In this document: one piece after another, positions 38,184 to 40,921 of the stretch
How positions within the stretch are numbered: position 1 is the first letter of the stretch
Layout of the letters: every line of letters starts with the position of its first letter
Sequence record: MT446387.1
Length of the DNA stretch: 64,000 bases
From: Escherichia phage TH09
Direction: 5' to 3' (one strand)
Program-made: the position numbers and the translations under genes
Notes under the pieces: model-generated
The model's database searches: none
What the model saw: only the letters and a program-made list of their open reading frames with translations
What the model was told of the DNA's origin: nothing

Positions 38184-38347
38184 TGGTTTACAAGTTGGCA
38201 AGGTTATGGTATAGTAATCTTGTCAACTGTCAAGGAGAAGAGAATGAAAATTTTGTTTGTTGTGTATGTGATGATTCAATATAATTACCCAATGTTTACT
38301 TATAATCTGGTGAACAACATTATTGATATGATTCAGAGGAGTATACA

Positions 38348-38893
38348 ATGATGAGTGAGGCGAAACGATTAGTATTAGAAGTTAGTTCACTTTTTGGTGA
38401 ATTGGCTATAGAAAAAGTAAATAATATGTATCGTTTGACACAAGAAGACGATATGCTATATTTTACGCCTAACGAAATTGTTCGTTTAACCCAAATTGAA
38501 AATTCTTATACTGATAAAATTGTAAGCATTAATGATGAGCATAAAATTCATTTCTATTCTTTATGCCCAGGATTTAATATTGAAAGCGAGTCAATATGCT
38601 TATCAATTAATAATTGGGATAATTTTATAACTAAGATTAAATATTTTTATTATTCTAATGAAAGAAAACATAGTTTAAAATGGTTTAAAAATTGCAATGC
38701 TATTATTACTAACGCTTGCAATCAGAATGATGAAACTGTTTTAAACGTATCAAAATGTTATGAAGATGGAGATGTCTTAACTATTCGTCAAATTGATGAT
38801 TCTCGAGCACATATTGTCACATTTACCAAAGACGAAGCTATTGCACTAAAGACTTATCTTGATTCTGTTATTCCAACTATGATTTCAAAGTGA
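38348..38893 (+). CDS. hypothetical protein, paralogue A of tandem pair
   Basis: 181 aa with GAGGAG SD; shares GFNIE(S/D)E.., ...SN and C-terminal K(T/Y)YL..V.P(T/S)M with the next ORF. Confidence 0.6.
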   Translation: MMSEAKRLVLEVSSLFGELAIEKVNNMYRLTQEDDMLYFTPNEIVRLTQIENSYTDKIVSINDEHKIHFYSLCPGFNIESESICLSINNWDNFITKIKYFYYSNERKHSLKWFKNCNAIITNACNQNDETVLNVSKCYEDGDVLTIRQIDDSRAHIVTFTKDEAIALKTYLDSVIPTMISK

Positions 38894-38899
38894 GGAAAT

Positions 38900-39421
38900 A
38901 TGTTTATTTCAAGTGGAAGCGGTTTAATTCGTGTTGAATTTAAAAATGACATCTTCCTTAGTCAAGGAGATGATATTATTAAAATGAGTTATGACGAAAT
39001 CAAGAAAATTTGTCATACTCTTGAAAGCCGTGGAAAAGTAAATGCTGTTATTGACATCGGTGATTTATGGGTAACTCTTTATGAAGTATCCGAAGGATTT
39101 AATATTGAAGATGAAAATAACATCTTAGCTATTGATAAAAGAACTGATTTGCTTGATGTATTAAAAGCCTATGAACAGTCAAATGGTGGAAGAAAAGCTG
39201 TATTGATTTATCAAAAACCGCATTCATGTGGAACTGCTTCAATCATTTCAAATATTGAAGGCGAAGCTGATACTTATATGTGTGTTTTAAAAGCTGGTGG
39301 TGACCGTCATCCGGATTTTATTTCTATTCGTCAAAACAATGAAGAAATTTCATTATCAAAATCAGAAGCTGAAGCGATGATTAAGTATTTAACAACCGTT
39401 ACGCCTTCAATGAAAGGATAA
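38900..39421 (+). CDS. hypothetical protein, paralogue B of tandem pair
   Basis: 173 aa; alignable to 38348 ORF over central and C-terminal regions. Confidence 0.6.
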   Translation: MFISSGSGLIRVEFKNDIFLSQGDDIIKMSYDEIKKICHTLESRGKVNAVIDIGDLWVTLYEVSEGFNIEDENNILAIDKRTDLLDVLKAYEQSNGGRKAVLIYQKPHSCGTASIISNIEGEADTYMCVLKAGGDRHPDFISIRQNNEEISLSKSEAEAMIKYLTTVTPSMKG

Positions 39422-39423
39422 TT

Positions 39424-39885
39424 ATGATTATTAATGAAAACTCTTGGCACTATAAATTATTCAAATTGTTTAACGATGAATGGCAACGACCTAAGACACT
39501 ATGCGTATATTTTTGGTCTATTGCCATTCCTATATTTTTCGTTTCTATTTTTGGGTGTGCTATACTCGTAGGGCTAACAATTATTTGTGCAGAAAGCCTA
39601 CAACGTTGGCTTATTTTCGGTAGTTTATGGACTCTTCTTCCATCAGCATTTATACTTGCGCTTTTGGTTGTTTTACTTATTATCGGTTCATTTGTTATTC
39701 CTGCACATTTGCATGAAAAATATAAAGATTATAAATGGAAAAAGGATTATGCTTTACACGTAGAAAATATTGATAGGGCGTATAAAGGTTTACCTCCTAT
39801 TCAACCCAAGAAATCGGTTATCGTTGAATTTTTAAAAGCTCGTAAAGCTAAAGTATGTCCTGTTATTGAATATAAGGCTGAATGA
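39424..39885 (+). CDS. integral membrane protein
   Basis: 153 aa with three hydrophobic helices; coupled by overlaps to both neighbours. Confidence 0.6.
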   Translation: MIINENSWHYKLFKLFNDEWQRPKTLCVYFWSIAIPIFFVSIFGCAILVGLTIICAESLQRWLIFGSLWTLLPSAFILALLVVLLIIGSFVIPAHLHEKYKDYKWKKDYALHVENIDRAYKGLPPIQPKKSVIVEFLKARKAKVCPVIEYKAE

Positions 39886-40895
39886 TGAAAACAGTAATGA
39901 AAAGCTATTTTGGTAGTCATCTTTATGGAACTTCTACCCCAGAATCTGATGTAGATTTTAAAGAAATCTTTGTTCCTCCTGCTCGCGATATTCTTATCGG
40001 AAATGTCAAAGAGCACATGAGTAAAAACACTAACAACACATCATCTAAAAACACTAAAGATGATATTGACCATGAACTATACAGTCTTAAATATTTCTTT
40101 AAATTAGCAGCAGATGGTGAAACTGTAGCGTTGGATATGCTTCACACTCCACCTGAACTAGTGGTTAAATCTGATTTGCCTGATGTGTGGAAGTTTATTC
40201 AAGACAACCGTTCTCGTTTTTATACGACTAACATGAAATCCTATTTAGGATATGTCCGCAAGCAAGCTTCTAAATACGGTGTCAAGGGTTCTCGTTTGGC
40301 TGCATTACGTGATGTATTGAAAGTAGTTAATCAAATCCCCGAGCAATGGGTTGATTACCAAGAAGACGGTTCCATTAAGCAGCGTCGCACTAAAGTTGAA
40401 GATATTAAGCATCGTCTTCCAGAAAACGAATTCTGTGAATGGGTGTTCCATAATCATGAGAAAACAGGTCCACAAACGTTCTACACTGTATTGGGTCGTA
40501 AATATCAGACAACGCTTTCTCTTATTGAGCTTAAGCAGTCTTTGAATAAACTTGATGCTGAATACGGTGAACGTGCTCGTAAGGCCGAAGCCAATGAAGG
40601 CATTGATTGGAAAGCACTAAGTCATGCTTGTCGTGGTGGACTCCAACTATTGGAAATTTACAAAACTGGTGACTTGGTTTATCCACTCAAAGATGCTCCA
40701 TTTATTCTCGACGTGAAGTTGGGTAAACATCCATTTAAAACGGTTCAAGAGTTTTTGGAAGATGTGGTCGATCAAGTAGAAGCAGCATCTACTGAAGCTT
40801 CTAAGAACGGTATGCCTAAAACAGTAGACATGAGTTTCTGGGATGACTTCCTTGAGAAGGTCTATCTTGAAAACCACCGAAGTTATTATAAATGA
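39882..40895 (+). CDS. nucleotidyltransferase-like protein (pol-beta superfamily signature)
   Basis: 337 aa; N-terminal FGSHLYGTSTPESDVDF (GS-x10-DxD) plus downstream acidic cluster KDDIDHE; followed by strong terminator. Confidence 0.6.
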   Translation: MMKTVMKSYFGSHLYGTSTPESDVDFKEIFVPPARDILIGNVKEHMSKNTNNTSSKNTKDDIDHELYSLKYFFKLAADGETVALDMLHTPPELVVKSDLPDVWKFIQDNRSRFYTTNMKSYLGYVRKQASKYGVKGSRLAALRDVLKVVNQIPEQWVDYQEDGSIKQRRTKVEDIKHRLPENEFCEWVFHNHEKTGPQTFYTVLGRKYQTTLSLIELKQSLNKLDAEYGERARKAEANEGIDWKALSHACRGGLQLLEIYKTGDLVYPLKDAPFILDVKLGKHPFKTVQEFLEDVVDQVEAASTEASKNGMPKTVDMSFWDDFLEKVYLENHRSYYK

Positions 40896-40897
40896 TA

Positions 40898-40921
40898 GGG
40901 AGCCTTCGGGCTCCCTTTTTT
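40898..40921 (+). terminator. rho-independent terminator
   Basis: GGGAGCC-TTCG-GGCTCCC followed by TTTTTT. Confidence 0.85.

Follow-up and report, generated by a model that had tools for sequence, protein, structure and literature searches.

Positions 38348-39885 of the window (the whole stretch analysed, 64,000 nucleotides of Escherichia phage TH09, MT446387.1) are the promoter-distal part of an early Tequatrovirus transcription unit, running from a candidate promoter to a terminator, and encode two old tandem paralogues and a membrane protein. Structure models suggest that the paralogues have the layout of Pur-alpha, and the gene of their third repeat was found next to the membrane gene in seven genera. 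We tentatively propose that the three products form a complex at the membrane.

Gene order and junctions

All three open reading frames that an earlier note had placed here are present on the + strand. We refer to them as A, B and C, and the unit reads as follows.

38187..38215, + strand: candidate early-type sigma-70 promoter, TTTACA-17-TATAGT with TG upstream, heading mobD.2 - A - B - C - nrdC.11
38244..38351, + strand: mobD.2, ORF for a 35-aa hydrophobic peptide, its stop overlapping the start of A (phrog_3515, E 1.7e-21)
38348-38893, + strand: ORF A, 181 aa, orthologue of T4 MobD.1 (Y05I)
38900-39421, + strand: ORF B, 173 aa, diverged MobD.1 paralogue of the RB32ORF097c type
39424-39885, + strand: ORF C, 153 aa, inner-membrane protein of the RB32ORF096c type
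39882..40895, + strand: nrdC.11, RlaP-family (Pol-beta superfamily) nucleotidyltransferase, final gene of the unit
40897..40916, + strand: intrinsic terminator with an 8-bp GC-rich stem, TTCG loop and T-run, closing the unit (terminator scan)

The putative promoter, which matched the consensus at 10/12 positions and has an extended -10 (consensus scan), probably drives the unit; a promoter is annotated at the equivalent place in the JB75 record. A second, putative middle promoter lies at the 3' end of A. A terminator is also annotated at the equivalent site in JB75 and G28. The name mobD.2 is the one used in the PP01, T4 and RB14 annotation, and nrdC.11 was identified by PF10127 (E 3.2e-11, 43.8 bits against a gathering score of 23) and phrog_388 (E 7e-138).

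The junctions are tight. Six nt separate the stop of A from the ATG of B, with a GAGG overlapping the A stop; C begins 2 nt after the B stop, confirming that the membrane-protein gene closely adjoins the pair; and the stop of C overlaps the nrdC.11 ATG (ATGA). A putative translational coupling of A, B and C, as claimed earlier, is compatible with this geometry.

As a sequence feature the locus is ordinary, the 1.7-kb stretch being 96-98% identical to PP01, T6, RB14 and hundreds of other deposited Tequatrovirus genomes. T4 MobD.1 (Y05I_BPT4) and RB32ORF097c/RB32ORF096c of RB14, RB32, T6 and PP01 are the same genes, with no substantive difference. The GenBank annotation of RB14/RB32 already records that A and B are paralogous and that mobD is replaced (the RB14 record reads 'similar to mobD.1' and 'replaces mobD'), and Pfam already holds the families PF24449 and PF24448. 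Literature searches found mobD.1 only in the insertion-site table of a 2010 review of T4 mobile elements, and nothing relevant on y05I or PF24449/PF24448. Annotations of these genes as 'molybdopterin-guanine dinucleotide biosynthesis protein MobD', 'integrase/recombinase', 'prohead core protein', 'helicase loader' and 'thioredoxin' had no domain-search support and are artefacts.

A and B are old tandem paralogues

In BLASTP the alignment of A with B spanned almost the full proteins (27% identity, 53% positives, E 6e-13). Their Smith-Waterman score was 126, against 30.8 +/- 5.0 (maximum 63) for 2000 shuffles of B (z = 18.9) and 24-42 for neighbouring proteins. The alignment thus survived the shuffling control, confirming that the two are genuine tandem homologues, and the motifs on which the earlier note had relied (GFNIESE/GFNIEDE and the C-terminal YL..V.P.M tail) proved to be aligned, conserved columns. 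Both proteins contain T4_y05I_N (PF24449) and T4_y05I_C (PF24448) in N-to-C order: with gathering scores of 24.9 and 27, A scored 139.4 bits (E 6.8e-41) and 74.3 bits (E 9.9e-21), and B 115.9 and 82.3 bits, respectively. Both also matched phrog_1502 (E 3.5e-80 for A, 6.5e-67 for B). This y05I family is small and restricted to Tevenvirinae, and an HMM scan of six-frame ORFs over the 64-kb window found no copies of its repeat-III domain besides those in A and B.

The pair had been read as a local duplication, which is not the simplest account. DNA identity between the genes is only ~52%, so the duplication must be old, and in a neighbour-joining tree B fell outside the clade formed by A and the genes present as single copies in Mosigvirus, Dhakavirus and Gaprivervirus. 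These two results rule out a recent local duplication. B is an old, deep-branching paralogue of A, and its position outside the A clade points to ancient duplication or lateral acquisition. Nor is A extra content relative to T4, since it is the orthologue of MobD.1 (87% identity).

T4 carries a derived allele

The locus was confirmed as the T4 mobD region, in which mobD lies between mobD.1 and nrdC.11 (PMC2988022). Blastn of the window against T4 showed ~95% identity up to 38918, resuming at 39881, and delimited the following segment.

38919..39880, + strand: absent from T4, comprising B from codon 7 on and all of C; T4 has an 808-bp cassette with mobD instead

T4 thus retains the RBS, the ATG and the first six codons of B, and B and C fill exactly the mobD slot. 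T4 mobD DNA has no counterpart in 38919-39880 and no ORF gave an HNH match, so that the homing endonuclease is indeed absent, as had been proposed; the window carries the endonuclease-free allele of the locus at which T4 has the free-standing HNH cassette mobD.

The further suggestion that B and C are lineage-specific has to be reversed. We counted 433 phage records with B (>=80% identity) and 901 with C-type proteins, the latter across Tevenvirinae genera, whereas T4-type mobD occurred in only 47; these counts rule out lineage-specific content. B and C are present in roughly nine of every ten Tequatrovirus genomes sequenced. In VR26, mobD lies between the membrane gene and nrdC.11 with nothing deleted, which indicates that the T4 arrangement is the derived, deleted one. 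Copies of the mobD allele that are >=99.6% identical occur in differing backbones. We conclude that the allele of T4 and its close relatives is a derived one, with a mobD homing-endonuclease cassette in place of B and C. T4 is therefore an atypical phage at this locus, and T4-based studies are blind to the B/C module. The B-C allele and the mobD allele lacking B-C also provide a natural test system for intronless homing and the removal of two resident genes.

The absence of B and C from T4 could mean that these ORFs are functionless, decaying filler of a hyperplastic region. The T2 and RB14 records have frameshifts in these genes, and the T4 nrdC.11-mobD.3 segment can be deleted (PMC9825161). 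Yet the frames were intact and dN/dS was 0.15-0.21 in eight independent phages (0.21 for A in 5 phages, 0.18 for C; 0.04 for nrdC.11), intact copies number in the hundreds, and across seven genera the membrane gene has been conserved together with its partner (26-57% identity). This evidence of selection and conservation already largely refutes decay, which we regard as highly improbable. The module is dispensable in laboratory hosts, yet kept by selection in nature, a profile that suggests an accessory function in host takeover, exclusion or counter-defence.

A and B are predicted to have a Pur-alpha-like layout

According to the models, A and B each consist of three beta-beta-beta-beta-alpha repeats, of which repeats I and II pack as one intramolecular PC4-like/Whirly/PUR-type domain and repeat III is a lone unit resembling PUR repeat III. 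The predicted domains are as follows.

approx. 38369-38659, + strand: N-terminal domain of A, two beta-beta-beta-beta-alpha repeats
38660-38890, + strand: C-terminal single repeat of A
38900-39187, + strand: N-terminal PC4-like/PUR-type domain of B
39188-39418, + strand: C-terminal PUR-repeat-III-like domain of B

AlphaFold2 gave the N-terminal domain a pLDDT of ~88 and a topology of twice four strands and a helix, two repeats making one domain as in the PC4-like/PUR/Whirly fold. The C-terminal domain reached a pLDDT of only ~45 in the full-length model and gained confidence only in a separate model built from a deeper alignment with stand-alone homologues; there it took the form of a single third repeat that corresponds to PUR repeat III (a type II unit). 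In hhalign comparisons repeats I and III were homologous (probability 91.5%, E 8e-7). Repeat II gave no significant match to repeats I or III (E 0.15-0.17) and was therefore assigned from structure only.

To our knowledge, an architecture of type I plus type II PC4-like domains has so far been described only for Pur-alpha. The relation is one of fold: neither A nor B matched the PurA, Whirly, PC4 or MRP Pfam families at E <= 1, and a y05I alignment profile found nothing relevant among all PDB sequences, for which reason we do not file them under the PUR family. Foldseek against BFVD returned only y05I family members and uncharacterised Bacillus-phage proteins. The Pfam label 'putative transcription factor' rests only on analogy.

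Pur-alpha itself (PURA; PDB 3k44, 5fgo, 8chw) shared 9-17% identity with the phage proteins in structural alignments, with no Pfam or PDB sequence match. Unlike Pur-alpha, the y05I proteins are acidic, without conserved basic or aromatic sheet residues, and their genes are coupled genetically to a membrane protein. Acidity extends across the family (pI 4.2-5.1, net charge -7 to -22), a property reported here for the first time, and the conserved or invariant columns are G, Q, D, E, N, I and L. These features make nucleic-acid binding by A and B less likely. Among single-repeat PC4-like proteins, Borrelia Bpur (3n8b), YdbC, SP_0782 and the T5 PC4 homologue (4bg7) are basic binders of ssDNA or RNA, whereas y05I_C units are mostly acidic, share a conserved C-terminal YLNSVIPTMK tail and always lie 5' of the membrane gene.

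The fold nevertheless raises the possibility, in line with the Pfam label, that A and B are soluble binders of ssDNA or RNA of the Pur-alpha/Whirly/PC4 type, modulating early transcription, mRNA fate or replication, perhaps with the NrdC.11 RlaP protein, and that C is merely a neighbour. It is favoured over a membrane complex by the fold relatives, which are mostly single-stranded nucleic-acid binders. The strong acidity of the whole family speaks against it, as do invariant columns that are not the basic or aromatic sheet residues typical of nucleic-acid binding and the lack of sequence relation to the PurA, Whirly and PC4 families or to any PDB chain. Two proteins of the same fold, the KhtT N-domain (7agv; KhtT has an RCK_C domain and regulates an antiporter) and SsgA-like (3cm1; actinomycete cell division), have no sequence relation to y05I and bind no nucleic acid. 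Soluble nucleic-acid binding would also leave unexplained why repeat III alone stays beside a membrane gene. We consider this reading somewhat unlikely.

Repeat III stays next to the membrane gene

A y05I_C ORF ended 0-10 nt 5' of a C-type gene in Tequatrovirus, Mosigvirus, Dhakavirus, Gaprivervirus, Jiaodavirus, Winklervirus and Moonvirus and in 4 metagenomic contigs, while genes further up- and downstream varied. This arrangement in seven Tevenvirinae genera is a new observation. In three genera the partner of the C-type gene was only a stand-alone repeat-III ORF of 70-85 aa, and Moonvirus has two such ORFs in tandem. A natural A/B hybrid likewise retained the C-domain of B beside the membrane gene. 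Two results count against a link to the membrane protein: the C homologue of an Erwinia jumbo phage lacks a detectable y05I_C gene on its 5' side, and none of the best 120 of 172 membrane homologues was fused to y05I_C (Rosetta-stone).

C belongs to phrog_944 'membrane protein' (RB69ORF104c type; E 1.8e-49, residues 1-152); no Pfam family was found for it, and its alignment profile matched none of the PDB sequences. In the hydropathy profile, residues 25-56 and 62-97 stand out as two long hydrophobic stretches without charges. The three helices originally counted are possible, the second stretch being 36-46 aa in homologues, but an N-in/C-in orientation with an even number of spans fits better, because the N-terminus is basic and the C-terminal tail very basic (net +6, 14 K+R, pI 9.5). 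Conserved features are an N-terminal MxIxxxSWHxK...LCxYFW and a basic tail ending KARKxKxCPxI, with W8, H9, C27, K138-K141, C145 and P146 invariant in six genera.

A possible accessory complex at the inner membrane

A Pur-alpha-like layout, acidity and a lone repeat beside a membrane gene together lead to a testable hypothesis of dimerisation plus membrane docking. Type II PC4-like repeats form dimers between molecules, and repeat III is the unit through which Pur-alpha dimerises (PMC7549692); in all solved relatives of the lone repeat-III unit the fold is completed only by pairing with a second copy. By analogy, and in view of the tandem stand-alone repeats of Moonvirus, A and B would dimerise via repeat III, as homodimers and perhaps also as an A:B heterodimer. 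Such an acidic dimer could then dock on co-translated C at its basic, cytoplasmic N- and C-terminal ends, the net charges (-7 to -22 for y05I, +6 for the C tail) being complementary, and yield an early accessory complex associated with the inner membrane. The repeat I-II domains may provide another surface, to which a ligand from the host or the phage would bind; this ligand would more likely be protein than nucleic acid because A and B are acidic.

We hold such a dispensable, early-expressed, membrane-associated complex, with A/B dimerisation and docking on C, to be possible, though somewhat short of an even chance. T4 argues against it in that MobD.1 is intact there without C, so that A at least is retained without a membrane partner. 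T4-like genomes are broadly collinear, so that a conserved neighbourhood says less about interaction than it would in bacteria. Docking also requires the tail of C to be cytoplasmic, and C may span the membrane 2 or 3 times.

A and B might instead act as acidic decoys or inhibitors. As mimics of nucleic acid or traps for protein, they would neutralise a DNA- or RNA-binding protein of the host that serves in defence or housekeeping, and B and C would widen host range, which would explain natural retention together with laboratory loss. Their acidic pI is in keeping with this, as are the early expression, dispensability and variability of genes in a hyperplastic region and the purifying selection in field isolates, and paralogue diversification suits an arms-race pattern. 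However, no known anti-defence family matched, PADLOC models gave no hit to A, B, C or NrdC.11 at E <= 1, and the dN/dS values carry no whole-gene sign of positive selection. We regard decoys as unlikely; they would overlap with the membrane complex rather than exclude it.

Extending the complex to its history is more doubtful than the complex itself. The MobD.1 family might be a phage-specific, acidic offshoot of Pur-alpha in which repeat III, as a homo- or A:B heterodimer, became a conserved adaptor to a dedicated inner-membrane protein, the early complex having a host-range or counter-defence role and being lost in T4 when the mobD cassette replaced B and C. If this were true, the loss in T4 would explain why the complex was never studied.

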